Positions 1,185 through 20,000 of a stretch of 20,000 nucleotides of DNA are shown here, piece after piece (positions within the stretch are counted from its first letter, which is position 1; each line of letters opens with the position of its first letter). The notes under the pieces were generated by a model. That model searched no databases and was not told the origin of the DNA. It saw nothing but the letters and a program-made list of their open reading frames with translations. The position numbers and the translations under genes were made by a program. The stretch is from Jimgerdemannia flammicorona (taxonomy: Eukaryota): contig RBNJ01000012.1 in the NCBI GenBank assembly GCA_003990765.1, forward strand, positions 44,850 through 64,849, in the 5' to 3' direction.

Positions 1185-2385
1185 TGTAATGTGCCTGGCT
1201 CAATGGAGGCAAATTACAAGGTTGGGGGTTGATGTAGTTTGGCTTGAGCCCTCAGTTACTTTGTTAAAAAGCAATAAAATGTTCTAAGATTCCTGAGGTC
1301 CTTGGTATTTAGTGGTATAATAGTCAAGATCTGGATATCTGTGAGTGGTTTCCTTATTGGGATGGTTCTCTGAGTGTAGTGGCAATTTGTGTCTTTCCTT
1401 CTTGGGTCAACTGGGAATGGTAGAATTTGTGTGTAGTATGAGCAGTTTCCTTCTTGAGTAGTGGGTGATTTCTGTATAGCATGACAATCTTATACATGAT
1501 GGTCTGGCAATTTAGCAGTTCTCCTTATGTGATTTCTGTATGATGATCTCTGTGTAGCATGGGCTTCCTTATACAGGACATTCTGATAATTTGGCAGATA
1601 ACTCAATTTGGCTTACTGGGAATAGTATGGCATAGATTCTTTGAATTGAGCTCACTAGGAACAAACTGATAACTCAGATGTTGCAGGTTTTCTGGGAATG
1701 CAGATGACGTGTAAATGGCAGATAACATGGATTCTCCTGAATTGGTAGACTTCTTGAAAAAAAGGTAGCTTCAACTGGGAGTAACTTGGATAGCATAAGT
1801 TCTTCCAGATCGGGCTCTTCTGGGAATGTGAACAACTGGTGGCATTCTTCAGGAAAGAGTTTCTTGGCAAAGTTATGTCAAAGACTGGCTTCATTTGCAT
1901 GGGGTTACATCATAGACTGGCTCCACTGCGAAGTTGCATCAGAAAGACTGGCTTGTGGCAAGAAAGGCAGGTTCTCTGAGAATGCAGTGAATAACTTGAA
2001 AATGATAGATGACACGGATTCTTCCTGAATCAGTGAAGTTCTTGAAAATGGTGGCTTATTCCTTAAGCAGCAGATTACTCAAAAGGCAGCAAAGTTCTTC
2101 TTTGAACTTGGCAGAAAATCGGCTTTGTATCGAAAAGTGGACCAGAGTGGAAAGGAGACCAATGCTCAATCTTTAGAGGCTTCTTTGGTGTTTGTATTTC
2201 AGACTCATTCTTTATATCAGAAAGTGGACTGGAGTGGGGAAATAAGCTCACAATCTCCTAGCAGTGGCTGTAGAGTTCCTCTTGAAGTGTAGCAGGCAGA
2301 CTTGTCTTTTGCTTCAATTTCAGACTCATTCTTTGTATTGAAAAGTGAACTGGAGTTGAAATGTATTCTGAATTTCAGACTGAGG

Positions 2386-2417
2386 TTTATTCACTCTTGT
2401 CTCTGGGGTAATTTATA
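2386..2417 (-). promoter_or_regulatory. LTR TATA box (TATAAAT) and polyadenylation signal (AATAAA)
   Basis: atttata at 2411-2417 and tttatt at 2386-2391; the same arrangement occurs in the other LTRs of the window. Confidence 0.65.
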
Positions 2418-2480
2418 CATTGTGGTTGCTATCTGGTTGCTATCTGACTAACTATAGAGTGCTATTTATGGGGTGATATT

Positions 2481-2558
2481 CACTGTCAGAGTGACAGCTA
2501 CTGTCAGGGTGACAGCCACTGTCAGGGTGACAGCTACTGTCAGGGTGACAACCACTGT
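2481..2558. repeat. 18-bp palindromic tandem repeat in U3 (4.3 copies, CACTGTCAGGGTGACAGC)
   Basis: Units start at 2481, 2499, 2517 and 2535, with a partial unit at 2553. Confidence 0.95.
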
Positions 2559-2692
2559 TCACATTATTTCCTTCTTTGGCTATCTGGTTATTTATACATC
2601 TTCTGCAGCAATGGTTGCTGATTACTATGCTGTACTAATGTTCACATCACCTGATCAGGTTTCAAGATTGCTACATCTTGTAGTTTGTCACA

Positions 2693-2707
2693 TCAGCCGC
2701 CACTAAA
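2693..2707 (-). promoter_or_regulatory. Atypical polypurine tract of B (TTTAGTGGCGGCTGA)
   Basis: Immediately upstream of the 3' LTR; homologous position in D at ~17013-17027; only partly purine-rich. Confidence 0.5.
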
Positions 2708-2731: not shown

Positions 2732-3238
2732 TTAGTCATCATTCCAATAAGCATAGGCATCTTCTGCATCTATACCTGTTCCATCATCTTTATTGTCTGT
2801 ACTGGGGTCACTCCATTCTAGCTCTGGATCTTCCTCTTGTTCTTCAAGAAACAGGATGTCTACTTGTTGAAGGATACTCTGAAAGGTGGTCTCATTCATC
2901 TGATAGATGTCATTGAGGTGGAAGTGAGACTGCACCAGGGCTCCAATGTTTCATTTATACAGGGTGTAGATTCATTTGGCAGTTCTTACTTCTCTGAGAG
3001 TAATTCTGGCTGGGCTTCTTATATAAGGTTGTTCTGTCAATAACTGCCCAATGTTGTAGAAGGCTTATAGATAGTGGATCCGAAGCAACCTTTGGGAAAT
3101 GGCAAGGTTCTCTTGATGCTTCTGGATCAATTGTATGGAGGTTCCTTCAAGTTGACGAAACTGGGGCAGGGGAATTGGCAGGGCTTAGAAGAAGCTGAGA
3201 ATGAGGGTCTGGAGGCATTGATCTATCCTCTGAGTCAT
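2732..3238 (-). pseudogene. Accessory ORF3 of B (~168 aa, unknown function, acidic C-terminus), 4 premature stops
   Basis: Single frame MTQRIDQCLQTLILSFF*ALP...L*AFYNIGQLL...RTAK*IYTLYK*NIGALVQSHF...YWNDD; all stops revert by T>C; homologous to ORFs in C, D and E. Confidence 0.8.
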
Positions 3239-4299
3239 GGTTTGTGCAGGTATATCTTGAGGTGATTGATGTGGACTGGTGTTCTCAGGGTTCGTCCATC
3301 CATGCTTCTTAAATAGATTCTGGTTCCTCTGATGTTGTGTACAAGATAAGGTCCTTCCCATTTTAGTTCCAGTTTGGTGGCAAAGTTTATTTCTATCATA
3401 CTTCTCCAAACTAGTACTTGGTCTCCAATCTTGATCTCCTGATCTTTCTGTTTCTAGTTATAATACTTCTTTTGTCTTTCTTGGGCTTTGATAATCTGAC
3501 CTCAGGCTTGATTTCATAACTATTCTGCCTTTTTGAGGAGGTCTCTGAGGTTCTCATGGTCAGCAGTTCTAGTTTTCTTAGCAAACATCATTTCGAATGG
3601 CTTTTATTTGGTGGAGGCAGCAGGGGTGTTCTGAATTTCCCATAGAATTTCAGGTAAGCAGAGGTCCCAATTGGTAGGATTGACTCAGGCAAGTCCTCTC
3701 TTGATGGTCTGGTTCATCCTTTCTGTCATACCATTGGTCTGAGGGTAGTATTATGTAGTCTGTTTGAGGTGGATCTTGTGAATTTGGGCATAACTTGTGA
3801 TTATGTTGTTGATGAATTCTGTACCTCGGTCAGAGATGAGTTCTTCTGAGGGTCCATATCTGAGTGTGAGTCCATGGAGGAGGCCTACAATGGTTAAGGC
3901 ATCTGTGATTTCCATTGGAAAAGCCTCAGGCCACTTGGTCAGATGTTCTACAAATACAAGGATATATTTGCGTCTTCTTGGTGTAACTGGTAGAGGTCCA
4001 ATTATGTCTACTCTCCATCTCTGAAAGATGTTGTTTGGTGGTATGATTGGTTGCAGTGGTGCTTGATAGTTCTTTTTTCCTTGGTATTTCTGGCAGGTGT
4101 CACATTTCTTGAGTGTGTCCCAGACTTGTGTTCTGAGGTTGGACCAATGTTGGTATGTTGTTCGCAGCTTCTCTTCTATATTCACCTGTCCCTAATGGGC
4201 TTTCTGATGTTCTTTTCGGATGAGATATTCTTGTGCCTTGATGGTCTGAGGAGCTTCCTTTAGGGTATAGTTCCTCAGGACACCCTTCTTCTGGTTCAT
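3235..4299 (-). pseudogene. Integrase of B (HHCC, DDE core, GPY/F module; no chromodomain)
   Basis: EHQKAH...CDTC, VDIIGPLP, SDRGTEF, YYPQTNGMTERMNQTIK, KWEGPY; internal stops. Confidence 0.93.
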
Positions 4300-6118: not shown

Positions 6119-6520
6119 GTCTGAACTTCCAAATCCCTTGGCTTGTCTTGTTCCTTCAGTTAGTTCAGAGACTTCCTGTAACTGTGGAGTCTTGACCTTT
6201 ATGAAGACTGCTTGGGCAATCTTCTGTCCTCTAATGATTCAGTGCTATTCTGCACTGCTGTTGTATAAGATAACCTTGATTTTGCCTATATATCCTGAGT
6301 CAATAGTTCCTCTTTCCACTATTATTCCTTGTCTGGCAAGTCCAGACCTTGAGGTCAGTTGGATATAAATTCCTTGGGGTGACTGTATGGCTAGTCCAGT
6401 TTGGACCATGAAGGTTTTCCCAGGCTTGATAGATTCATCCTCCAGGCTGTGAAGATCATATCCTACATCCTTGAGGTGGACTTTGGTCGGGGGTTTGGCC
6501 TTGGAGTGCAGCAGAGCATA
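6119..6520 (-). pseudogene. dut: Trimeric-type dUTPase domain within the pol region of B
   Basis: All five motifs in order: VGYDL, SRSGLA, GTIDSGYIG, KIAQ, RQAKGFGSS; two premature stops. Confidence 0.92.
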
Positions 6521-6529
6521 CAGGGCAAT

Positions 6530-7843
6530 ATTCTTACTAAGTTCGGGCTCTCCTAAGGCTGAAGCTCCACTAGCAGAAAGCCTCCAAGCTCTAAGGTTGA
6601 GGTGTGGCCATCTGGCTCCAGTAGAGGGGTCTTGAAGGTAGTTAATTCCCCTTCTTCCTATAGGGTCAAGGGCTTCCATGAAGTTGGTGGCATCTTCTGC
6701 CCATTCTTGGTGGGTTGAATGTCTGATAAGAGCTGGGATGTCTTCTCCCAAATCGTAGATCTTGAGGATTCTTTTTCCGGGCTTCTTGGTCGGGCTTTTT
6801 CGAATCTGGCTTTTTTGGATCTGGTTTCGGTTATCTCCTTTCTTCAAAGTATGCACTGCAACATCATAACTGAGGTGAATCTTCTGGTGTCTGCAGTCTC
6901 GGCAGTCAGGGTGTCTTCCATGGTTACAATATCCCATTGCTCAGAAATGGTATTCCTGGCTGTTGATCTCTTGTTGTCTTGGAAATCAGTACCCATCTTG
7001 GTCATAGGTGGGTGGAAGAGTAGACAAGGGATATATTTCTATCTGGGTGAAGAAGCCTTATTCTCTAAATTGACTTTGTAACCTTGTGGTAACTTCTTGA
7101 AAAGTGGTTGACTGTACAAGTGTAGTTGGAGGTTCTGGTCTCTGGGGTCTCTGTCTTTCTTGTTGGTCCAACAGATGACATTGATAGCAGTAGTCTTAAG
7201 GAGAGTGGAAGATCATTTGGTGTGGACATCTTCTTAGCTAAAAAGCTTTCTCTTGGTGAGTTTCTTTCTTGGGAATAATGGTGATTGTACTGGGTCCTTC
7301 TTCTGTATTCCAAGGGTCATTGTCTTCAGGTGGTGTTCAATGAGGATCATCCCAAGGAATGAGTTCAGGGACTTCTTCTTCTTCTCCATATGCTTCTTGT
7401 TCAGAGACTTCTTGATCAGAAGTTTCTTCTTTCTTAGATGATTCTTGACCCCAAATTGCTTGTACTTCTGCAGCTTTGGTTGCAGGTGTTTCTGGAATAT
7501 GTCTATATTTCTTCTTCTTCCTTCTGCATTCTGGGCAGGCTGTACCAGGCAATTTCCTTATTCCCATAATCTTGGAGGAGTGCTCAGGACATTTGTGTCT
7601 CTTGAGGCAGGTAGAGCATCCTTTGGCTTTTCCTGTAATAGCTCCAATAGTGATAGAGATGGTGTTCTTGGCCCACACATTATCTTCTGGTCTGTTATCC
7701 ACCAGATTGATTCGGGGATTGAGTCTGGGATCAGTTCCATCTTCAGATTCTTCTTCTTCTTCTATAGTGGACTCTTCGCTACTGGCATATTCTTCCTGAA
7801 TAGTGATCTTTTTCTTCTTCTTTGATTGCTTATAGCTAGTCAC
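6530..7843 (-). pseudogene. Long linker between protease and dUTPase with acidic tracts and repeated Cys/His motifs
   Basis: In frame with the dUTPase; CSTCLKRHKCPEH..CPEC, CPH..CYQC, CNHGRHPDCRDC. Confidence 0.7.
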
Positions 7844-7849
7844 CTTAAC

Positions 7850-8200
7850 TCTGTACTTCTTGCCTCAGTAGTCAAACTTGAGTACTTGTTGGCCAATGTA
7901 AACAACTGCATTCATTTCCTTCATCCAGTGCCAAGAATCATATCATAGGTGACAGCTTTGGTGATAACAGCTTTGGAGATAGAGAACTGAATGTGTCTAA
8001 GGGAGATGGTGATATTTCATACTTCTCCAAGGGGTTGAGTTCGGGCTCTATCTGCTACTATGATGCTGAGATTGGATGGTCCATCAATGGGCCATTGGAG
8101 GGTGTCCAATAATCGTTTGGCAATGACACAGACAGCTGCTCTTGTGTCTTTGAGGATTTTCACTTTTTGTCCTCCAATATCTCCATGCAGGTAGGTGCTG
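7850..8200 (-). pseudogene. Retroviral-type aspartic protease of B
   Basis: VKILKDTRAAVCVI (decayed DTG), IIVADR flap, YDMILG followed by a small frameshifting deletion. Confidence 0.85.
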
Positions 8201-8699: not shown

Positions 8700-10169
8700 G
8701 AAATCTTCAACAGGATGGGCTTCAGTCTTCTTGTACTGAGTGTCATTCCTTCAGTTTGCTGGTTCTGAGTCCCTTCAGTCACTTCTTTTGTTGTCACATT
8801 CAGTGGCATAGTGTCTGAATTGTTCACAGTGGAAGCATTGGACTTGGGCTCTGTCTCAGACAGAGTACCTTCTTTCTTCTTGCTGGTAATTCCTGTTATC
8901 TCTTGGTGAATATCCTTGGCTCCTCTGTGGTGGGTACCCTCTGTTGTTTTGGTAGTCCCAATTTTCACATGTAGTGAGTTTTTCAAACTGTCTAACCAAT
9001 CGGTCTAACTTGGAGCTGAGGTCTTGGATTTCACTTCTGTTCTTCTTTCCTTCCTTGACTGGCCTTCTTTCTTCTGATCTTTCTTGTCCTTGAAGGAGTC
9101 CTTGTAGGGCTTTGACCAGGATATCTTCTTTATCTTCCTTCTTATCATGATCACTCCAGGTAGTTCCTTGTCTGATATCAAAGAATTCTTGGGCTGCATC
9201 TACTTGCTCTTCAGACCTTCTGATGTCTAGGGTGCAGACATGCTGGGCAATATTTGGAGGAATTCCATTCATGAAGGTCATTGGACCTATGATGTCTTAG
9301 TTGGTGGCATTGAACCTAGCAGAATGCATTCTCTTCTGGATTCTTATAAAGAAGGCTCTGGGTGATTCTCCAAGATTCATCTTCATTCCCATGATGGATT
9401 CCTGGGCCTTGTAGTGAGTTTCATTTCCTGCATATTTTTCAATGAGCCAGTGGACCATGGCTTCATATTCTAGCTCATCAGATATTGCTGCTTGTATTTG
9501 TCTTGCTAGTTCGGAATCTTGGTTGTTTGCTGTTTGATGGAAAATTCCTCTGGCTGGTTCTCTGAGCTGAGCTTTATAGATGGTGATTTTTCTTTCATCT
9601 GAGAGATTTCTCAAGGCTGCAATTCCTTCAATTCCATCAAGGAATTCTCTGAGATCTTCCTCCAGGTATCCTGCAAATGTTGGCAATAAGGTAGCCATTT
9701 CATTGTCACTTTCTTCTAATTCTGGTTCAAGTTCGGATTCTGATTCTGATTCACTTTCTGAACTGTCACTAGAGATGGAGATGCTTGGGTATCCTGAGGA
9801 TGGTGTTCTGGATCTTGGACAAAGTGGAATAGGCCTAGGTATTCTTGTAGGAGCTACTTCTGGTTCTGCAAGGGGTTGTGGTAGGGGTTCAGTTGGTGAG
9901 ATTGGTGAGACTGGTGTAGGGTGTCTGGCTGTAAGGTATTGAGTCCATATAATAAGATCTTCTAGTTCTTGTGTGAGTTCTCCAAAATCTCTAGCAGGGC
10001 TGCCTGTATTGTCTGGTTAATCTGGTTGGGGATTTTGGGCAGTACTGCCTTCTGGTTCTGGTTGGGATCCTTCTGATGCTGGGTAATTGGTAAGTCTTGA
10101 AGTGATTACTTCTCTTCCTGTCCAGATGCTGGTGATAACTGGTTCTCCTGTAGTAGCAGAGATTGGTAT
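8700..10169 (-). pseudogene. gag: gag of B with CCHC zinc knuckle
   Basis: LPTFAGYLEEDLREFL, MKMNLGESPRAF, FMNGIPP; CFHCEQFRHYATEC at 8796-8837; Pro/Ser/Glu-rich N-terminus; start inferred from an in-frame ATA (decayed ATG) at 10169. Confidence 0.88.
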
Positions 10170-10235
10170 TATATCAAATGTATCCAGTTTGACTGTGGGT
10201 TCTTGTGAGCTGAAAAGTTACATCAATTTGAAATC

Positions 10236-10253
10236 TTCCCAGTTGAGCCCCCA
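10236..10253 (-). promoter_or_regulatory. Primer-binding site of B, tRNA-Pro-like (TGGGGGCTCAACTGGGAA)
   Basis: Starts with TGG 2 nt after the 5' LTR end; resembles the MLV tRNA-Pro PBS TGGGGGCTCGTCCGGGAT. Confidence 0.75.
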
Positions 10254-10255
10254 AA

Positions 10256-11701
10256 TGTAATGTGCCCAGCTCAATGGAGGTAAATTACAAGGTTGGGGGT
10301 TGATGTAGTTTGGCTTGAGCCCCCAGTTACTTTGTCAAAAAGTAACAAAATGTTCTAAGATTCCTGAGGTTCTTGGTGTTTAGTAATATAATAGTCAAGA
10401 TCTGAATATCTGCAAGTAGTTTCCTTATTGGGACGGTTCACTGGGTGTAGCAGTGATTCATGTCTTTCCTTCTTGGGTCAACTGGGAATGGCAGAATTTG
10501 TATATAGCATGAGCAGTTTCCTTCTTGAGTAGCGGGTGATTTCTGTATAGTGCGACAATCTCATGCATGATAGTCTGGCAATTTAGCAGTTCTCCTTATG
10601 TGGGATGTTCTGATAATTTGGTGGATAACTTGATTTGGCTCACTGGGAATATTATGGTGTGGATTCTTTGAATCGAGCTCACTGGGAACAAACTGATAAC
10701 TCAGATATTGCAGGTTTTCTGGGAATGTAGATGACTTGAAAACAGTGGATGATGCAGATTCTCCTGAATCGGCAGACTTCTTGAAAAAAAGGCAGCTTCA
10801 ACTGGGAGTAACTCAGATGGCATGAGTTCTTCCGGTTTGGACTCTTCTGGGAATGCAAACAACTGGCGGTGTTCTTTAGGAAAGAGTTTCTTGGCAAAGT
10901 TATATCAAAGACTGACTTCATTTGTATGGGGTTACATCATAGACTAGCTCCACTGTGAAGTTGTATCAGAAAGACTGGCTTGTGGTAAGAAAGGTAGGTT
11001 CTCTGAGAATGTGGTGAATAACTTGAAAATGATGGATAATGCAGATTCTTCCTGAATCAGCAAAGTTCTTGAAAACAGTGGCTTATTCCTTAAGTGGCAG
11101 ATTACTCAAAAGGCAGCGAAGTTCTTCCTTGAACTTGGTGGCAAATTGGCTTTATATCAGAAAGTAGACCAGAGTGGAAAGAGGACCAATGCTCAATCTT
11201 TAGAGGCTTCTTTGGTGTTTGTATTTCGGACTCATTTTTTGTATTGGAAAGTGGACCAGAGTGGGGAAATAAGCTCACAATCTCCTAGCAGTGGCTATAG
11301 AGTTCCTCTCAAAGTATGGTAGGCAGACTTGTCTTTTGCTTCAATTTTGGACTCATTCTTTGTATTGGAAAGTGAACTGGAGTTGAAATGTGTTCTGAAT
11401 TTCAGACTGAGGTTTATTCACTCTTGTCTCTGGGGTAATTTATACATTGTAGTTGCTATCTGGTTGCTACCTGACTAACTATAGAGTGCTATTTATAGAG
11501 TGACATTCACTATCAGGGTGACAGCCACTGTCAGAGTGACAGCCACTGTCAGGGTGACAGCCACTGTTCACATTATTTCCTTCTTTGGCTATCTGGTTAT
11601 TTATATATCTTTCACAGCAATGGTTACTGGTTACTATGCTGTACTAATGTTCATATCACCTGATCAGGTTTCAAGATTGCTACATCTTATGATTTGTCAC
11701 A
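10256..11701 (-). repeat. 5' LTR of element B (1446 bp)
   Basis: Direct repeat of 1185-2692, shorter by a 44-bp deletion and one 18-bp unit. Confidence 0.95.
11508..11567. repeat. 18-bp palindromic tandem repeat in U3 (3.3 copies)
   Basis: Units at 11508, 11526 and 11544, partial unit at 11562. Confidence 0.95.
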
Positions 11702-11705
11702 GTAG

Positions 11706-12771
11706 TATAATTGTTAAATCTAGATATCTATAAGTAATTCAGACAGATTTCGTAATTGAGACAGTTCTTTGATATATAGATAATTTATATATAGTATGAA
11801 TAGATTTTTTTATGTAATTTTATAGTAATTTCTATATAGCATGAGCTGGTTTCCTTATACAATTTCTATATAATGATCTCTGTATAGCATAACAATCTCA
11901 ATTTTTGTATGATGATATTGGTGATCTGAAATAATATGGCAAATTTGTCATTTTTCTTAGTAAGTGATAGGTTGATAATTAGTAGACTATTTGGAAAATA
12001 TGGATTTTTCAAAAATAGTAGATAACTTAATTAGTGAATAACTCAGATAACTCAGATAGTGTGGAATCTTCTAAATTAGCAGACTTCTTAAATAATAATT
12101 CAGATGATACAGATTCTTCTAAATTGGCAGGCTTCTTTTCTTAATAAAGTTATATCAAAGACTACTTTATTTGGACAAGATTATATTGAGAAACTGGCTT
12201 TACTATAAAGGTGTATCTTATATTAAACTGGCTTTGTGGTAAGATATAGACAGACTTATTAAATAGCAGCTCTTTCTTAAGTAGCAAAGTTCTTCACTTA
12301 AACTTTTGGTAGTAAATCTCAGACTTTATATTGAAAAGTAGACTGGAGTAGAAATAGAGCAAAGCTTGCAACTTCTCAGCAGTAGCTCATTGGTAGGTTT
12401 TTTCTCTAAAGTATATTAGATAATTGGCTTTTATTTTGATTTTGGACTGAGGTTTTATTTACTCTTATCTCTGAGATATTTATATAAGTTGATTGCTATA
12501 TAGTTACTATATATATAGCTAACTATAGGTTTGCTAATTAGGGGCAGATATTTACTATCCAGTAGATATTTACTATCTAGTAGATATTTATTGTCTGGCA
12601 GACATTTACTATCTAGTAGACATCTACTGTCTAGTAGATATTTACAATCTGGTAGATATTTACTATCTCTTTCTCTTTTTGACTATCTGGTTATTTATAT
12701 AATTTTCATAGTAATAAGATAACTATGGTATTTATATTATCTAGTTATACTATACTGTTTCATACTTCACA
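11706..12771 (-). repeat. Remainder of the element A 5' LTR
   Basis: Continues 1051-1184 after the GTAG duplication; diverged homolog of the B LTR; ends TTCACA, and this end resembles the D LTR start at 17028. Confidence 0.85.
12543..12668. repeat. 18-bp tandem repeat, 7 copies (ancestral-like unit GGCAGACATTTACTGTCT), in U3 of A
   Basis: Units at 12543, 12561, 12579, 12597, 12615, 12633 and 12651. Confidence 0.92.
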
Positions 12772-12970
12772 ATATCTATCTCTTACTTTAAATTGATAAT
12801 CTTTTGAACTAATTACAAAATATATACTAGATACTTTAATAGTATAGACCTTTTTGCAGAATTCTATAAGATATCTATAGACTCTAAGAATATTCAAAAG
12901 ACAGTCTTTCTCACTTTAAGAAACTATTTGAATATCTCTAAATACTCTTTAAACTCTATAATATACTGCT

Positions 12971-13322
12971 TAGTCCTCCTAAATAAATCAAATCAATTCA
13001 AATCAAATTGAATTGGAGATTTTTCAATTCAAATCAAGTTTAAATCAAATCAAATTCAAATCAAATCGAGGGTCTGATTTAAACCTTATTTTTAGAAATA
13101 TAATAACTTAACTAAAATACATCCAAATATAACAATCTTTAGCTTGTTAGATTTTTCTTATAAGGAGAAATCTAACAAGCTAAAGATCATTAAATTTGAA
13201 CATGTTTTTGTCAAGTTATTATATTTTCAAAAATAGAGTTTGAATTGAATCTCAAATCAAATTATACCTTTGATTTGATTTGAATTGAATTAAATTGGAC
13301 CTTTGATTCATTGAGAGTACTA
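12971..13322. mobile_element. Non-autonomous foldback MITE, probably hAT superfamily
   Basis: Interrupts the RT of D; imperfect TIRs TAGTcCTC..AATaAATCAAA / TTTGATTCATTGAGAGTACTA; 8-bp TSD-like atactgct/atactacc; subterminal AAATC/GATTT repeats; internal palindrome centred at 13160/13161. Confidence 0.8.
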
Positions 13323-13832
13323 ATACTACCAATATCTAGAGGATAATGAACTCAGTCTATGTTATATTGATTTACTACTATCTAATTATCTATATAGATG
13401 ATTTTAATATCTATCAGCAAATTTTGAGAAATACTTGTTAAATCTAAAAGAGTTTTTTTGACTTATCAGAAAGAACCACCTGAGACTCAATATCAAGAAA
13501 TACTATTTTGAAAATCTGAAACTCAAATTTCTCAGATTTATAATTTCTAAAAAAGGAACTTATATAGACTTAAAAAAAAAACAAAAGAGATCAACAACTG
13601 GCCAATATTTAAGATCTCTAAGAAACTACTATTTTTTTTAATACTAATATTTTACCATAGAGGATTTATTAGAAATTTTTCCAAAACCTCTACACTGATC
13701 TGAATCCTACTTAAAAAAGAAGTACTATATAAATAAAAGAAATTATAAGAGTAAGTCTTTAAGAAACTTATATACTATATAACTATAGTACTAGTTCTTA
13801 TATAATCTAATTTTCAAAAGTCATTCATATAT

Positions 13833-15327
13833 TGTAATGGTGACCTCAGAATGATGACATCAGTACAGAAGACAGCCTTTCCTTATAAGTCACCAGATCA
13901 GAGCATGAGAAGATCATACAGTATATGAGATGAGTAATGATGACCAACTGTGAGTCATTGTAACCACAGTTCAGATATCTTGAGAAATATAAAAGAAGGC
14001 TCAAGGAATCACAGTAGCAGTAACCAATAAGACCCATCAATCCCAAAATAGCTCAAAGACTTACCACAAACAAAATGCCTGCTGCTTACCAAACCTCAAG
14101 GTCAAGGAACTACTGAGGCATCTCAGTTGAAGAAAGGATGTTCCAAGACATCAGAAGAGCCATGAGGACCTGCTCAAGAAGGACTCCTAGTGTCAACCTG
14201 GATACTACAGATCCTTATTATTATATTCTCTACTATCATAAAATAGAAACAAGAATCACCATTGCTACTGAATGCCTCCAAATGTGGTAGGAGTATGAAA
14301 TAGGAAATCTCCTCTACTGAGAGTTCCCACAGGCCAGCTCTCAAGAGCTACAAGATGTCACTCCCATAGATATATATGAGGCAAGGATGGCTAAGAAGAT
14401 CCATCAGATCTTCAGGCATGCACCATAGTCTATCCCCAACTTGGAGTATATTAGAGTCTCAGACTTCAGAGACCTGTCATCCCACTATATCAATGCACTA
14501 GAAATCAGGGTGGCTATAGAAGCCCAATCCACTATCACCCTCAATAGTGATGAAGTAGAAAACTTCTAGCATCTCATCTTTCAAGACAACTCAGATCAAT
14601 TCCTGTAAGGATTGATCTCAGTATTTCAAGGCCCAAGCATCCAGGTTAGATCTCCCCAAGACCTCATATTTGTTTCCTATTTTGTAGAAGAGAATCTCAT
14701 AGATTGGAGAGCCCCTGATTTCCCTGCCACTAAACATGATGATGTCATTGGTAATGACATCATTCCACATGACATACATGAGATATGCAACATATATGAA
14801 GTATGCAAAACATGAGACCTATGCAACAATAATGAATTCACAGACCTCATCTCCTTCGAAGACATTCTGACCTCTGATGATGAAGCCTCTATAGTCTTGA
14901 ACATTCTGCTCTAAGTCCCTTGGTTATACTGAATAATGCCAGCATTCTGAACCTGTACAACCATCAGTGCCAACTCTGGAACTTAGCAGTTTTTCCTATC
15001 CTGGCATTTTATTTTAGTTATTGAAATTTATATTTAGCTTTATATCTAAGCAACCATTGAATTATATTTTGTATAAATACCCCTCTTATTTCCTTTGAAA
15101 TAAAGTCAGTCCATTCAGTCCATTTAGTTCTGGTTCACTTATACACACTTCCTTGCAAGCAATCTAAGAGATAATAAGACAGTTTAAAGATAAGAAGTTT
15201 GAGAACTATAAGATCTTAGGAAGGCACTCAAATAAGAACTTGCTTATAATAAACTTGAGTTAGTCTAAGAGATACACCTTGAAGAGAATCTGGTGTATTT
15301 GAAGAACTCAGCAACCACTACATGACA
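13833..15327 (+). mobile_element. Solo-LTR-like element E (1495 bp) containing a decayed ORF
   Basis: TGTAAT...ATGACA ends; flanked by ATAT on both sides; interrupts the D RNase H FILYTD motif; TATAAAT at 15072 and AATAAA at 15099. Confidence 0.8.
14075..14914 (+). pseudogene. ORF3-family pseudogene (~279 aa) inside E
   Basis: One frame with no frameshift and 7 stops, all revertible by single transitions; motifs EYEIGNLL and MAKKIHQIFR. Confidence 0.75.
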
Positions 15328-16479
15328 ATATATAGATATCTTTAAGAATAGTCTCAGAGCTGTCCTAGCTCAAGAAGAACCTGACTGATAATACTATATG
15401 ATAACTTATCTAAACTGAGCTACTAATAAGTAGTAAGTCAATTATAGTAATACTAAATTAGAATATCTTATAGTTATATAGACAGTTATCTTATTTAAGT
15501 ACTATCTTATCAGAAAAATATTCACTCTAATAACTGGTCATACTAATTATAAATAGTTATTTCACTATTAGGACTTTATTGAATTTTTTGCTCACTGGAT
15601 CCTAATTCTGTAAGATTATAAAATTACTATTATTTATAATGCAAAAAAGGCTCACAACAATATTGATATATTTTTTTATATAACTTAATAAATCAGAAGA
15701 AAAATATACTCAGAAACTATACTCTAAAGAAAGTTCTTATAACTATTAAAGAGCAGGAAGATCTCATCTGATAAAAATATTATAAAGTCTATTAAGGACA
15801 GATAAGTATAAAAGAAAAGCTACAAAAAATATACCAATACTAATCTCATCTTAGAATATATATAAATTAGAAATATTCTTAAGAGATATAATATCTATTA
15901 GAAGTATTAGAGAAAAAGAGTTACCAAATAGTCTGAGGCTTTTTCAATAGAAATTACAGATAACTCAACTTCTCCATAACCTCACTCTTAGATATAAATC
16001 TTCCAAAAAACTTATTTAAGATTATAGTATAGAATTTATTAATAAGTTGATCATAACTTCTATATAATTTATAAGATCTATCTGAAAAGAACTATATTAT
16101 ACTATTTCCAAACCAATGATATAATAGAATGAATGATCCAAACCATTAAGAAAGAACTTACTTAAGTCAATCCTATCAACTGAAACCTCTTGAAATCTTA
16201 TAGAAAATATAGAATATTTCTATTATCTTTATTAAATAAAAATATTTTAAGATAATATTTGCTAAGAAAACTAGAACAACTGATTATAAGAATCTTAAAG
16301 AACTCTTAGAAAAGACTGAATAATTATAAAATAAAATCCAACCATAGATAATTAAGATATAGAAATAATGAAAGAAGTTCTATAACTAGAAATAAAAAAA
16401 TTATATAGAAAATCAAAATTAGAGATCAGAGGATCTCAGTATATATTAATTATCTCAAGTTATACTTACTACTCATACA

Positions 16480-16988
16480 ATAATTCAGAGGATTGATCAG
16501 TATCTCCAGACTCTTATTCTTAGCTCTCTTTAGACTTTATCAGTTTTCTTATTCTAGTTCTGTAAAACTAATAGAAGCTATCTTCAATAGATTTAAATAT
16601 ATTAAAAAAACCTTACTCTGATATAATAGCTACTGCAAATTTACTAGCTACAGGCTTATTATACTATTGGTGAACAACTATAATATCTCTCAGCTCTAGA
16701 ATAGATCTATATTAAGAACATCACTAGCCTGATAAGAAAAAATACCACTGCTGCAGACAGACTCTATATAATTTATAAATAAAATATCATAGTACTAATG
16801 CTGATCTAGTTCTCTTTAAATAATATATAAAGAATAAACCTAGCTATCTACCAGAGTATCATTAGCTATATTGAAGTCTAATTTCTAGAAGAAGAAGAAC
16901 TTTTAGAATTAAGTAATCTAGATTAAAAGAAGATAATCATATAGATAATTATATAGAAGATATCTATAGATATTAAAATGATAACTAA
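16480..16988 (+). pseudogene. Decayed ORF3 of D
   Basis: ataattcagaggattgatcag matches B atgactcagaggatagatcaa; LQAYYTIGEQL...TAADRLYIIYK. Confidence 0.75.
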
Positions 16989-17057
16989 AGAATAGTTTAG
17001 GATAGACTATCCTTTAGTAAGGACTGATATGACAAACAAACACTATAGTATAGCTAG

Positions 17058-17533
17058 TGTAACGTAGCGGACACTTACTCTTGAAAGTATGTCGGATTTC
17101 TGTATTTTGAAAACTTGACCGTTCTGACTCTCGCAGAGTCTCTTGAAGTTGCAGGGAAGGGTGGGTGAGTTCAAAGTGTATCTGCCCGCAGGCTTACTAG
17201 TTCCTTTGCTATCTCTTTGCTTTGAACTATTTCGATCTGAGGTTTATTCACTCGAAGATACTGGGTTATTTATACAAGTTTGCTAGCTATGAGAGGGTGG
17301 CTAAGTAATAAATGAGTTATTTGGACTTTGTTGAAACATTTGGACAATGTCTAAATGCTATACTAAATCGGGGTATTCGATTTGGATAATGTCTAAAATT
17401 TAGACAATGTCTAAGAAATTAGACAATATTGAAATCGAGGACTGCTAACTATAATGCTATACTACTTTGGGAATGGGTGTGATCAAGTGTCTGTTCCCTA
17501 TTTCCTTCTTCCAAATCCGGCTGTACCATCACA
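17058..17533 (-). repeat. 3' LTR of C (476 bp)
   Basis: TGTAAC...ATCACA ends, adjacent PPT, TATA at 17268-17274, AATAAA at 17243-17248; partner LTR lies outside the window. Confidence 0.8.
17339..17433. repeat. Palindromic TTAGACAATGTCTAA-type repeats in U3 of C (about 4 copies)
   Basis: Copies near 17339, 17381, 17399 and 17418. Confidence 0.8.
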
Positions 17534-17546
17534 ACTTCCTCCTGAA
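17534..17546 (-). promoter_or_regulatory. Polypurine tract of C (TTCAGGAGGAAGT)
   Basis: Purine run directly upstream of the LTR TG on the - strand. Confidence 0.75.
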
Positions 17547-17570
17547 TGGATGGTCTTGTCCCTGAGGCAT

Positions 17571-18032
17571 CTATTCAAACTCCCAGGCTTCAACGGTCTG
17601 TATGGTCTTGTACTGTGCGATTTGCTGCATAACTATTTCCCAATGATGTCTTCTCACTTTCTCGAAGTTGGTGGAGGTTACTCCTCTCAGGTGGTCTATC
17701 GCTGCTTCATCTTCTCAGAATAACTTGTGGATCCTTTTGGCAACAGTGATCTGTGAGTAGGAGAGTTGACACTCAGCAATCCAGTCCTCCTTGGTCTTTG
17801 CTGGATCCTGATTGAGCACCTGTCCAAGCTTGAAGTACTCTTGGAATTCTGCCCGATATTGATAGGCTCTAAAGTGTGAGATCCTTGAAAGATGAGTCTG
17901 CACAATACTCTGAATATTCTCATAGAATGGCTCTATGGTCGGAGGCTCGGTGGTGTGCCATTGTCTTTCGATGGCTCTTTGAGCAGCACTAGTGATCTTG
18001 AGTGTCATCGTGGTACTTTTGTTACTGGCCAT
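17571..18032 (-). pseudogene. Accessory ORF3 of C (~153 aa, one internal TGA, probably from CGA)
   Basis: The 105-aa ORF continues in frame: ...QEYFKLGQVL...VAKRIHKLF*EDEAAIDHLRGVTSTNFEKV...WEFE. Confidence 0.82.
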
Positions 18033-19215
18033 GATATTTCTTGAGTCAGTTTCGGTGAATGGTGGTGGGGATTATTGTGCCTAAGGGTTTTCGTAGCCAA
18101 AAGGTAGTCCCTTTTATATCTTGCACAAGGTAAGGTCCTTCCCACTTGGGCTCTAGTTTTCGTGACCATGAAGCTTCAACCATATTCTGATACACCAGGA
18201 CTTTGTCTCCTATCTTGATGATCTCCAAGGGTTTGTGGGTCTTTTCTGCATTCCTCCATTGTAGTGTCTGCGCCTTCGTTATGTAATCCTCAGCCTTCTT
18301 CCTGATTTGGTGTAGTCTCCGTATTTCCATGTCCACATGTTTCCATACAGTATCTCCATTAGATGACAAGGTTCCCTGAGAACATTCTTCTCTGAACAGT
18401 ATTTCTCGAGGGGTAAAGTGGGTGCTTTGTGATCGGATATCCCGGAGAGCAGATAATGCTATTGGCAGATAGTGATCCCAGTTCTCGTAGTTATCGCAGA
18501 TCTTAGCAATAACATTCTTGAGGGTCTTGTTGGTCCTTTCTACTTGTCCATTTCCTTGAGGGTGATAGGCTGTGGTCCGAATGTGCTGGATCTTGTACTT
18601 CTTGTAGAGAACTTCAAAGAACTGGTTCACGAATTCGGTTCCTCTATCTGTAGTTACTTGTGTTGGGGTCTTGAACCAGCAGATGATTTCCTTGTGAAAG
18701 AAATCGGCGATTGACTGTGCATTAGCTTCCATAAGGGGTCCTGCTTCTATCCACTTTGTAAAAAGGTCTACGATGACAATGATGTATCGGTTGCCAGTCA
18801 AAGTCAATGGTAGGGGGCCGATTACATCCATTGCAATGTGGGCGAATGGTACTGGTTCTATGTGTGCTGATCCTGAGGCTTGATTTCGTTGGTCTTGTTT
18901 CTGTTTCTGGTATTTGTCACAGGTCTTGACGAATTGTCTGATATCTTCCTCCATCCCTGGCCACCATATTGTTCTTCTTGCCTTGTCGTATGTATTTGTT
19001 CCTCCTAGATGGCCAAGTTCGTGTACTGATTTCATTGCTTGCTCCTTCTTGTGTTCTGGTATGACTAGTAGTTTTTCTTTCTTCAGTGTTTCTCCGTCAG
19101 TTTCGAATTGTTTCCATGTTCTGTTTATAATCATTTGTGTCCATTCTTCCAGATGTTGGGGCATCTTTCGCTGTCCCAGGTATGTGATAATTCCGTAGTA
19201 GAGCTCCTTATTCAT
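18022..19215 (-). CDS. Integrase of C, nearly intact (premature TGA at 18046, 8 codons before the likely natural stop)
   Basis: HELGH...CDKY (C>Y), MDVIGPLP, TDRGTEF, YHPQGNGQVERTNKTLK, KWEGPY. Confidence 0.93.
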
Positions 19216-20000
19216 GATTGATTTGTTGGTTGGAGGCAGTTTGAGGTGTCCATGAGAGAGCATCTGCATTGGAATTTGTTCTTCCAGGGCGGTGCACGAT
19301 GGTTACATCATAGGCTTATAACTTCATTATCCATCTGGCATAGATTCCCTTGGGTTGTCCAGTTGTCAGTAGCCAGGTGAGAGCTGAGTAGTCTGTCTGG
19401 ATGGTGAAGTGTCTTCCGGCCAGATAGTAGTGGAACTTTTCCACAGCCCAGATAACTGCAAGGCATTCCAACTTGTAGGACTCATATTCTTTTTCAGCTC
19501 CTCGGGTTCTGCAGCTAAGATATGCAATGACATACTCTTTTTTGTCTTCTTTTTGAGCCAGGACAGCTCCTAGTCCCTGTGCACTTGCATCCATCTGAAG
19601 GATAAATTCTTGGGTCCAATTGGGTTGTCTGAGGATGGGTGCCTGAGTTTGTCTGACCTTGAGTTTGTCAAATGCTTTTTGTTGTCTGCCAGTCCACTGG
19701 AACTTGGTATCCTTCTTGTTGAGTTCGTAGATTGGACCTGTGATATTGGAGAATCCTCTAATGAATCTGCAATAGTAGGAGGCAAGTCCCATGAAGGCTT
19801 GGGCTTCTGTGACAGTAGTGGGCCTTGGGTATGCTACTACCGCTTGTATCTTGAGGGGGTCCGTGTGCGTTCGTCTCAATTGATGATATGGCCAAGATAG
19901 GAGATCTCGATTTCTGCAAACTTGCACTTCTTGGGTTTGATATAAAGGCCATGTTGTCTTAGTCTCTCCATTATCTGCTGTATGTGCTGCAGATGTTCCT
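19208..20000 (-). pseudogene. pol: RT C-terminal part and RNase H of C
   Basis: FMGLASYY, LQMDASAQGLGAVL, LECLAVIWAV, QTDYSAL, NADALS; one internal stop and a frameshift. Confidence 0.93.

Follow-up and report, generated by a model that had tools for sequence, protein, structure and literature searches.

ORF3, a probable third gene behind pol in decayed Ty3/Gypsy retrotransposons of a Jimgerdemannia flammicorona contig, and its candidate role as a regulator

A 20,000-nucleotide stretch of Jimgerdemannia flammicorona DNA (assembly GCA_003990765.1, contig RBNJ01000012.1, positions 44,850 to 64,849; this whole stretch is called the window, and coordinates are counted from its first letter) is composed of nested, decayed Ty3/Gypsy long terminal repeat (LTR) retrotransposons, namely elements B, C and D and a fragment E. 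All of them hold a copy of a third open reading frame (ORF), ORF3, which is very probably a real third gene of a Ty3/Gypsy lineage. Its protein of about 150-185 residues is predicted to be soluble, with a helical core and an acidic, aromatic-rich tail, and constitutes a new protein family within a known niche, the extra ORFs of LTR retrotransposons. Tentatively, ORF3 may be an element-encoded regulator that would bind repeats in the U3 region of its own LTR and recruit host machinery via the acidic tail, a reading regarded here as possible rather than probable.

The window contains the following copies of ORF3:

Positions 2732 to 3238, minus strand: copy B, 168 codons plus stop, with four internal stop codons (TAA, TAA, TGA, TGA).
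Positions 17571 to 18032, minus strand: copy C, 153 codons plus stop, interrupted by a single TGA at 17715-17717; the least decayed copy.
Positions 16480 to 16980, plus strand: copy D, of the B family, C-to-T hypermutated, with 17 stops.
Positions 14075 to 14620, plus strand: copy E, of a third lineage, with several stops and a putative ATG at 14075.

An earlier note on this DNA had claimed that homologous proteins are encoded in B, D, C and E and had quoted two motif blocks from them, and this has been borne out. A hidden Markov model built from 21 distant members, without any B- or C-family sequence, gave exactly four significant matches in the six-frame translation of the window: C at 17589-18014 (minus; independent E-value 1.6e-21), B at 2807-3235 (minus; 4.2e-16), E at 14132-14575 (plus; 8.1e-10) and D at 16486-16902 (plus; 2.6e-07), with the fifth match at 2.6. 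As these significant matches of a distant profile fall at the very places named, the observation can be considered settled, the profile match to each of the four copies being significant. Direct comparisons between copies or families give weaker signals. With copy B as query, tblastn picks up D (E 8.8e-09; 34.8% identity across 135 residues) but neither C nor E; cross-family hmmsearch between B and C is weak (independent E-value 0.11-1.6) but points to the correct places; and hhalign of the B and C families gives a probability of 72.6% and an E-value of 3.2e-5 over 53 columns that include both motif blocks. The four copies fall short of four independent cases: B and D share one lineage, and C and E each stand for another.

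With stops read through, the quoted strings were located in all four copies, at 2957-2983 in B, 16651-16680 and 16750-16776 in D, 14297-14314 and 14387-14413 in E, and 17814-17843 and 17718-17744 in C. Three residues stand for stops: Q in QAFYNIGQLL, R in TAKRIYTLY and Q in QEYEIGNLL. At both read-through positions of B, intact relatives carry Gln or Arg, and the positions of the B and C stops generally correspond to Gln, Arg, Lys or His; for instance, the internal stop codon of copy C is an Arg codon in five soil-metagenome contigs. The window DNA is itself partly present in soil and root metagenome runs and in material coded 'organism A', with shares of at most 0.23.

Intact relatives of 150-185 residues have been found in metagenome contigs. 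Database searches yielded seven relatives of B (from 23 candidates) and nine of C (from 14 candidates), and the full-length intact proteins include P0011 (169 residues), P0013 (171), P0014 (172) and P0001 (153). The intact B relatives P0010-P0015 are 52-81% identical, and the nine C-family relatives, which have open frames, show 60-80% identity. In a wider search, 1.84 billion representatives were compared with a profile drawn from 15 sequences of the B and C families, giving 29 proteins at E<=0.001 in the library of all lengths, none of which is an integrase-ORF3 fusion. One of them, P0020 (1062 residues, tandem repeats), was judged a false match; the others are 49-312 residues long, and the distant ones mostly 125-222. 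The family (YYxIG / IAxRIYxLF proteins) is defined by alignment A5 of 32 sequences, from which the partial or frameshifted P0003, P0004, P0008, P0009, P0012, P0015, P0016, P0019 and P0021 were omitted, together with P0020.

Members of A5 are only 13-24% identical to P0011 yet keep its length, motifs and helices. The conserved positions in P0011 numbering are a hydrophobic residue followed by Y61-x-I63-G64 (84%)-x-x-L67, then L79, A87, R89 (94%), I90, Y91, L93, F94 (84%), A100 and L101. In family terms, block 1 reads E-(F/L)-x-x-Y-Y-x-I-G-x-x-L and block 2 reads L-(S/T)-R-R-x-x-x-I-A-x-R-I-Y-x-L-F-x-x-x-P-x-A-L. Among the 32 members, no Pfam family is common to more than one (25 families, one member each; best E 0.008), and the same holds for NCBIfam (12 families, one member each). 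No relatives were found among viral contigs with alignment A6 and P0001 as queries. ORF3 therefore appears, as the earlier note had supposed, to be an accessory family that domain libraries do not recognise: it has no consistent Pfam or NCBIfam match and no PDB or BFVD match, and the libraries searched returned no known Gypsy accessory domain for it. Nor was a described equivalent found in the literature searched, which covers few subscription journals and does not extend to Repbase or Dfam.

Selection is one of the grounds for taking ORF3 as a real gene. Copy B and three B-family metagenome loci (L001, L002 and L003) were compared in six pairs by the Nei-Gojobori method. All six pairs gave pN/pS (proportions of nonsynonymous and synonymous differences) of 0.19-0.33 in the ORF3 frame versus 0.70-1.89 when the same DNA is read in either shifted frame; the alignments contain few gaps and followed the frame-0 protein, which introduces a slight bias toward low in-frame values. 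Differences are concentrated at third codon positions; between B and L001, for example, the three positions count 49/30/92. Past selection, which had been proposed from motif retention, is thus upheld, with ratios well below 1 in frame and around 1 or more out of frame. The neighbouring integrase has a dN/dS (ratio of nonsynonymous to synonymous substitution rates) of 0.08-0.14, and for the same pairs pN is 0.12-0.24 in ORF3 versus 0.003-0.088 in the integrase, indicating that ORF3, although under constraint, changes more quickly than its neighbour. In the C family, constraint is read at the protein level, from the nine relatives with open frames.

It is exceedingly improbable that ORF3 is not a functional gene, in which case the copies would be alike only because the non-coding DNA lying between integrase and LTR is of shared ancestry, and the database frames would be open by chance. 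All four window copies are broken, the database members all derive from unannotated metagenome contigs, and no RNA run occurs among the listed sequencing runs that hold window DNA, as such an explanation would have it. Nevertheless, it is contradicted by the selection test, with pN/pS far below 1 in frame only and the excess of third-position differences; relatives at 13-24% identity share length, motifs and helices; and the family has a confident structure model and intact full-length ORFs with a conserved start and C-terminus.

In the metagenome loci ORF3 also seems to move as a unit. L003 holds dUTPase, reverse transcriptase (RT)/ribonuclease H (RNase H) and integrase as long open frames, and ORF3 follows the integrase in L001-L003. 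Across the integrase and up to nucleotide 45 of ORF3, L001 (600-2119) and L002 are 92-100% identical; past that point identity falls to 73-78% and then to 53-60% within ORF3. Such a drop is interpreted as a recombination breakpoint near the start of ORF3, which suggests that ORF3 has been swapped as a cassette between lineages.

Structural predictions describe a compact helical protein. The AlphaFold2 (AF2) model of P0011 with a deep alignment has a mean pLDDT (predicted local distance difference test) of 87.9 and a pTM (predicted template modelling score) of 0.74, with helices at residues 2-18, 34-67, 81-94, 98-103, 108-113 and 116-129 and a less confident tail from about residue 130. The core is accordingly modelled with confidence as all-helical, and the tail as disordered and acidic. 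With the shallow alignment A2, the AF2 model of P0001 was poor (pLDDT 51.8), and a homodimer prediction for core residues 1-135 speaks neither for nor against a dimer (score 0.00, the alignment not being used and the fold being uncertain). In 24 of the 26 members considered, the final 30 residues have a net negative charge (down to -14); they are rich in W, F, Y and L. Tails of the B family carry a charge of -10 to -13 and are nearly invariant, the last 18 residues being the best-conserved part of the protein. The helical protein with an acidic tail that the earlier note had pictured has thus been recovered both in the model and in the tail composition. Many members finish with an acidic stretch and a C-terminal (F/Y/W)-x-x-(L/I/V), such as ...LFLDV, ...QFLDL or ...YLEV; endings of this kind resemble both acidic activation motifs and Atg8-interaction motifs. 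Besides, the distant members P0023 and P0026 begin with some 60 additional, basic residues that include KRGRR or the AT-hook-like RGRP, a hint that their subfamily may be directed to DNA or to the nucleus.

No membrane segment was detected in the 26 members, in which the top 19-residue Kyte-Doolittle mean is 1.36. The customary cut-off for a transmembrane segment is 1.6. N-termini are polar in the B-family, C-family and distant members examined. ORF3 is therefore not env-like, as the note had held, and it does not carry the signal peptide or transmembrane segment by which env-like third ORFs of the errantivirus and Athila type are recognised.

The AlphaFold check gave a confident helical model, and the Foldseek check no match above noise. 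No fold match emerged from Foldseek against the PDB (best E 0.43), from VIA-align (best Z 4.1, none at or above 5 among 48,161 chains) or from BFVD (best E 0.46), although the lack of matches is not proof of a new fold. The best PDB sequence match is the TetR-type helix-turn-helix (HTH) regulator 3qkx_A, in which an I-A-x-x-x-Y-x-x-F-x-x-x-x-x-L pattern aligns with block 2, weakly (E 0.043) and without a structural match; on present evidence ORF3 is not placed among the TetR-type regulators. VIA-align comparisons with HTH proteins were all at noise level (phage Mu Mor, Z 3.2; HetR, Z 2.9; DeoR, Z 2.9), and a PDB sequence search with alignment A4 returned only a designed protein (E 0.43). ESM Atlas gave no usable match for P0011; its matches for P0025 (closterovirus coat and others) share fewer than 170 features and were taken as chance.

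ORF3 directly follows the integrase and precedes the polypurine tract (PPT) or LTR in B, C and D of the window and in L001-L003; these copies served to judge the position, as only a fragment of E is present. This agrees with the env position in Gypsy elements to which it had been assigned, past the stop of the integrase and ahead of the PPT/LTR. It occupies all of the DNA from the pol stop to the PPT, ending 37 nucleotides before the LTR in B and just upstream of the PPT in C. In B its start codon overlaps the pol stop:

Positions 3235 to 3238, minus strand: ATGA, the ORF3 start overlapping the pol stop; also in L001 and L002.

The ATGA is thus found in three of the five B-family copies, and L003 and D are mutated at those four letters. 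In element C the ORF3 ATG lies 8 nucleotides before the TAA closing the pol frame, giving an 11-nucleotide overlap. Relative to pol, ORF3 is in frame -1 in B and +1 in C, which makes a fixed frameshift fusion unlikely; fusion of ORF3 to pol by frameshifting was rejected on the basis of these frames and of the absence of a fused protein among the profile matches. Stop-start coupling at AUGA or UAAUG is known from fungal totiviruses, hypoviruses, caliciviruses and influenza B. In these viruses the downstream start overlaps the stop of a long upstream ORF, as does the ATGA of the B family; the C family differs in its 11-nucleotide overlap, and copy B in that no upstream RNA structure or 18S-complementary element is evident.

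The same place is taken in chromoviruses by the chromodomain, so ORF3 might instead be an integration-targeting or host-docking cofactor that replaces the chromodomain and bridges integrase or the pre-integration complex to a host protein via its C-terminal acidic, aromatic motif. No Chromo domain was detected in the frames of B (E<=0.01) or C (E<=0.1), in seven ORF3 proteins (E<=10) or in the 32 family members. It is likewise missing from the Pfam lists of the 120 listed integrase relatives, all of them metagenome proteins (of 270 relatives at E<=1e-20). Such a cofactor would also suit a tail that resembles a short linear motif, nearly invariant in the B family while the rest of the protein is 52-81% identical, and the modular exchange between L001 and L002. 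Nevertheless, no integrase-ORF3 fusion stands among the 29 profile matches, the frame relative to pol differs between families, and the match to the integrase-binding domain of LEDGF is at noise level (Z 2.8). A targeting role is considered distinctly unlikely.

A further feature of these elements is a set of dyad-symmetric repeats with a period of 18 bp near or within the U3 region:

Positions 2481 to 2558, minus strand: U3 array of element B's 3' LTR, with 4.3 units of 18 bp and the dyad CTGTCA-N3-TGACAG, 137-214 nucleotides inside the LTR.
Positions 11497 to 11567, minus strand: U3 array in the 5' LTR of B, the same dyad array, 3.8 units.
Positions 17343 to 17427, minus strand: U3 dyads of C, TTAGACA-N-TGTCTAA, 2.6 units of 18-19 bp and one further copy, 58-142 nucleotides inside the LTR.
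Positions 14739 to 14828, plus strand: repeats 3' of ORF3 copy E, a 25-nucleotide palindrome with 11-nucleotide arms (14739-14763), then 3.2 units of 18 bp (14772-14828).
Positions 12546 to 12668, plus strand: an array of 6.8 units, likewise with a period of 18 bp but hypermutated; units with fewer changes read TGTCTG-G-CAGACA, and no LTR of D could be matched to it.

The repeats of E lie about 120-210 nucleotides downstream of the ORF3 stop, and no LTR start has been mapped in E. Period and symmetry are kept across the families; the sequences differ and have a TGTC/GACA core in common. TGTC..GACA dyads exceed all 200 shuffles (8 versus a mean of 1.98; 9 versus 1.94). A TATA-like ATAAATA occurs about 20 nucleotides downstream of the B array (about 2455-2465, minus strand), and two more TATAAAT motifs flank the array.

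Taken together, the absence of a transmembrane segment, the acidic tail, the stop-start overlap, the nearby U3 dyad repeats, the depletion of CpG in these elements, the weak TetR-type match on block 2 and the precedent of the VANC proteins described below are the grounds for reading ORF3 as a regulator. CpG observed/expected is 0-0.17 across B, D and E and 0.30-0.50 across C; the former values indicate that the host targets these elements at CpG. In the proposed scheme, ORF3 would be made in small amounts, by termination-reinitiation after pol or from a subgenomic RNA; its protein would bind the dyad-symmetric repeats of 18-bp period in the U3 of its own LTR; and the acidic, aromatic tail would recruit host transcription machinery or counter silencing by cytosine methylation, whose traces are visible in these copies. 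ORF3 would then act as an element-encoded transactivator or anti-silencing factor. The anatomy fits a regulator, and the particular roles of transactivator, anti-silencing factor or targeting factor are guesses.

Several observations weigh against the DNA-binding regulator. The core is not basic, its net charge ranging from -4 to +7 and being about 0 in the B family, and no recognised DNA- or RNA-binding fold appeared in the Foldseek PDB, VIA-align or BFVD searches. The match to 3qkx_A is below significance, and the aligned stretch is one continuous helix in the model, not a helix-turn-helix. Folding the sequence upstream of the ATGA revealed no stable RNA structure in copy B (z +0.85), the single, decayed copy folded. 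The dyad excess comes from the arrays themselves and is therefore not independent evidence, and only three lineages, all from one window, connect repeat type with ORF3 family. LTR elements, besides, commonly have tandem repeats in U3, which are usually bound by host factors. Finally, the palindromes also fold as RNA, which fits an RNA-level regulator equally well.

According to that last possibility, which is viewed as unlikely, ORF3 would be a post-transcriptional regulator of the Rev/Rex/Rem/Rec kind, binding the U3 hairpin array in the 3' part of the RNA and aiding export, stability or packaging of unspliced RNA. The U3 of the 3' LTR is present in every element transcript, and in folding against shuffles the arrays of B (z -4.29), C (z -5.85) and the D type (z -4.45) fold far better; a small, predicted helical protein would also be compatible with this role. 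Foamy virus Tas, Tax and Rex of human T-cell leukaemia virus (HTLV), Rem of mouse mammary tumour virus (MMTV) and Rec of human endogenous retrovirus K (HERV-K) are small proteins encoded 3' of pol that act on repeats or structures of U3/R, and HTLV Rex, MMTV Rem and HERV-K Rec have their response elements in, or next to, the 3' U3/R region. These regulators are expressed from spliced mRNAs of vertebrate retroviruses that also possess env, and the Rex/Rev types are arginine-rich. ORF3 resembles them as a small accessory protein 3' of pol; however, it is not arginine-rich, no arginine-rich stretch being present in B- and C-family sequences, and the searches found no similarity in sequence or fold. 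In addition to this and to the non-basic core, the E array folds no better than shuffles overall (z -0.56), and palindromes fold as RNA whatever their function.

Quite unlikely, too, is that ORF3 acts through protein contacts only, as some other counter-defence or particle-associated factor directed against RNA silencing, the hypermutation machinery or autophagy of particles. Its evolution, faster than that of the integrase, and its swapping between lineages are often seen in arms-race genes; the host clearly attacks these elements, through CpG loss and hypermutation; and the acidic stretch with a terminal (F/Y/W)-x-x-(L/I/V) in many members would suit such contacts. However, no similarity to a known suppressor was found in the Pfam, fold or BFVD searches, nothing ties ORF3 to a particular pathway, and the U3 repeats are left unexplained.

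Extra ORFs also occur in plant Ty3/gypsy elements. Bdelloid rotifer elements carry varied ORF3s (PMC5408684), and an 'add. ORF' of unknown function has been drawn for some fungal Gypsy elements (PMC2864245). Both are likewise third frames between pol and the 3' LTR, family-specific and modular, and the rotifer elements have the order protease (PR)-dUTPase-RT-RNase H-integrase (IN) in common with the present ones. The rotifer ORF3s are described there as env-like or as bearing transmembrane segments, coiled coils, a GDSL esterase or a DEDDy exonuclease, signatures that the present ORF3 lacks. The fungal 'add. ORF' may be of the same family as ORF3.

A parallel to the regulator proposed here is offered by the VANC proteins of Arabidopsis VANDAL (Mutator-like) transposons, which bind element-specific tandem repeat motifs and act in anti-silencing (PMC5735166). 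In both cases an accessory protein is encoded by the element, the element's non-coding DNA holds short tandem-repeat motifs that vary from one related element to another, and cytosine methylation is the means by which the host silences the elements. VANC belongs to another transposon class and kingdom, and binding and loss of methylation, shown for VANC in the same source, are guessed for ORF3. The parallel would be one of functional analogy only.

The elements themselves are landmarked as follows:

Positions 1230 to 2695, minus strand: 3' LTR of element B, 1466 bp with TGATGT...ACATCA ends, common to the next tandem element.
Positions 3239 to 4230, minus strand: integrase of element B, with zinc-binding domain, core domain and C-terminal GPY/F part and no chromodomain.
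Positions 18022 to 19269, minus strand: integrase of element C, a 407-codon ORF stopping at a premature TGA (18046-18048).
Positions 17491 to 17512, minus strand: polypurine tract of element C, whose LTR begins at 17485.

Element B lies on the minus strand with LTR pairs about 9.0-9.2 kb apart, and Pfam domains follow one another as gag-asp_proteas, dUTPase, RVT_1, RT_RNaseH, Integrase_H2C2 and rve, so that B has between its LTRs the order PR-RT-RNase H-IN of Ty3/Gypsy elements (Metaviridae). The ORF3-bearing elements are organised as gag, PR, dUTPase, RT, RNase H and IN, with no chromodomain. Past B's 3' LTR, positions 1-1000 contain gag from a further element, giving an LTR-internal-LTR-internal arrangement (1-2695 and 9190-11702), a tandem of the type produced by unequal recombination. 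Element C (minus strand, 17485-20000) retains the end of RT, RNase H and the integrase, whose frame closes at a TAA eight codons past the premature TGA.

Element D, on the plus strand, forms the AT-rich stretch between B and C (GC 0.23-0.27), with RNase H at about 15293-15620. Compared with two relatives at the sites on which these concur, D has 224 differences; C>T and G>A account for 162 of them, mainly in CpA and CpC contexts, and changes in the opposite direction for only 13; this hypermutation is a pattern resembling repeat-induced point mutation (RIP). Fragment E, about 1 kb with 41% GC (about 14000-15000, plus strand), interrupts AT-rich D between its RT and RNase H and is free of hypermutation, indicating that it was probably inserted after D had been hypermutated. 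Two decay regimes therefore adjoin in the window: D (11700-17000) is RIP-like, B and E are mainly CpG-depleted, and C is younger. Taken with the CpG decay, the RIP-like hypermutation suggests that the host is probably a fungus.

Within pol, a dUTPase lies between protease and RT (window 6120-6493, minus strand; L003 about 600-851; Pfam E 1.6e-26), a place in which it is known from some basidiomycete and rotifer elements. Between protease and dUTPase there is a long conserved stretch without a Pfam match (window about 6500-7900, minus strand; L003 3-600), holding a Cys/His-rich motif, GYCHHGKHPRCWPCQHEK in L003, that looks zinc-binding. A dUTPase between PR and RT has been described for PosPlaTy3-5 (PMC2864245).

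Extra genes of LTR retrotransposons are the raw material for retroviral complexity, and few have a known role. The ORF3 family is compact, under selection, confidently folded in prediction and absent from the domain and structure libraries searched; it is widespread in soil metagenomes and moves as a module between element lineages. It is tied to two testable features, the stop-start overlap with pol and the family-specific dyad repeats of the promoter region, and its profile lets annotators catch a gene that is now labelled 'hypothetical protein' or missed. In its fullest form, which is rather doubtful, the proposal would make these elements the first LTR-retrotransposon family known to encode its own sequence-specific regulator, translated by stop-start coupling, co-evolving with U3 dyads as an exchangeable cassette, switching the LTR on or removing silencing through an activation-type tail, and adopting a fold without known relatives. 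A sequence-specific regulator of this kind would be the retrotransposon counterpart of VANC and of retroviral transactivators. If ORF3 is indeed an activator or anti-silencing factor, it could supply new sequence-specific DNA or RNA binders, and it would show how retrotransposons counter the methylation and hypermutation with which fungi or other soil eukaryotes defend themselves.

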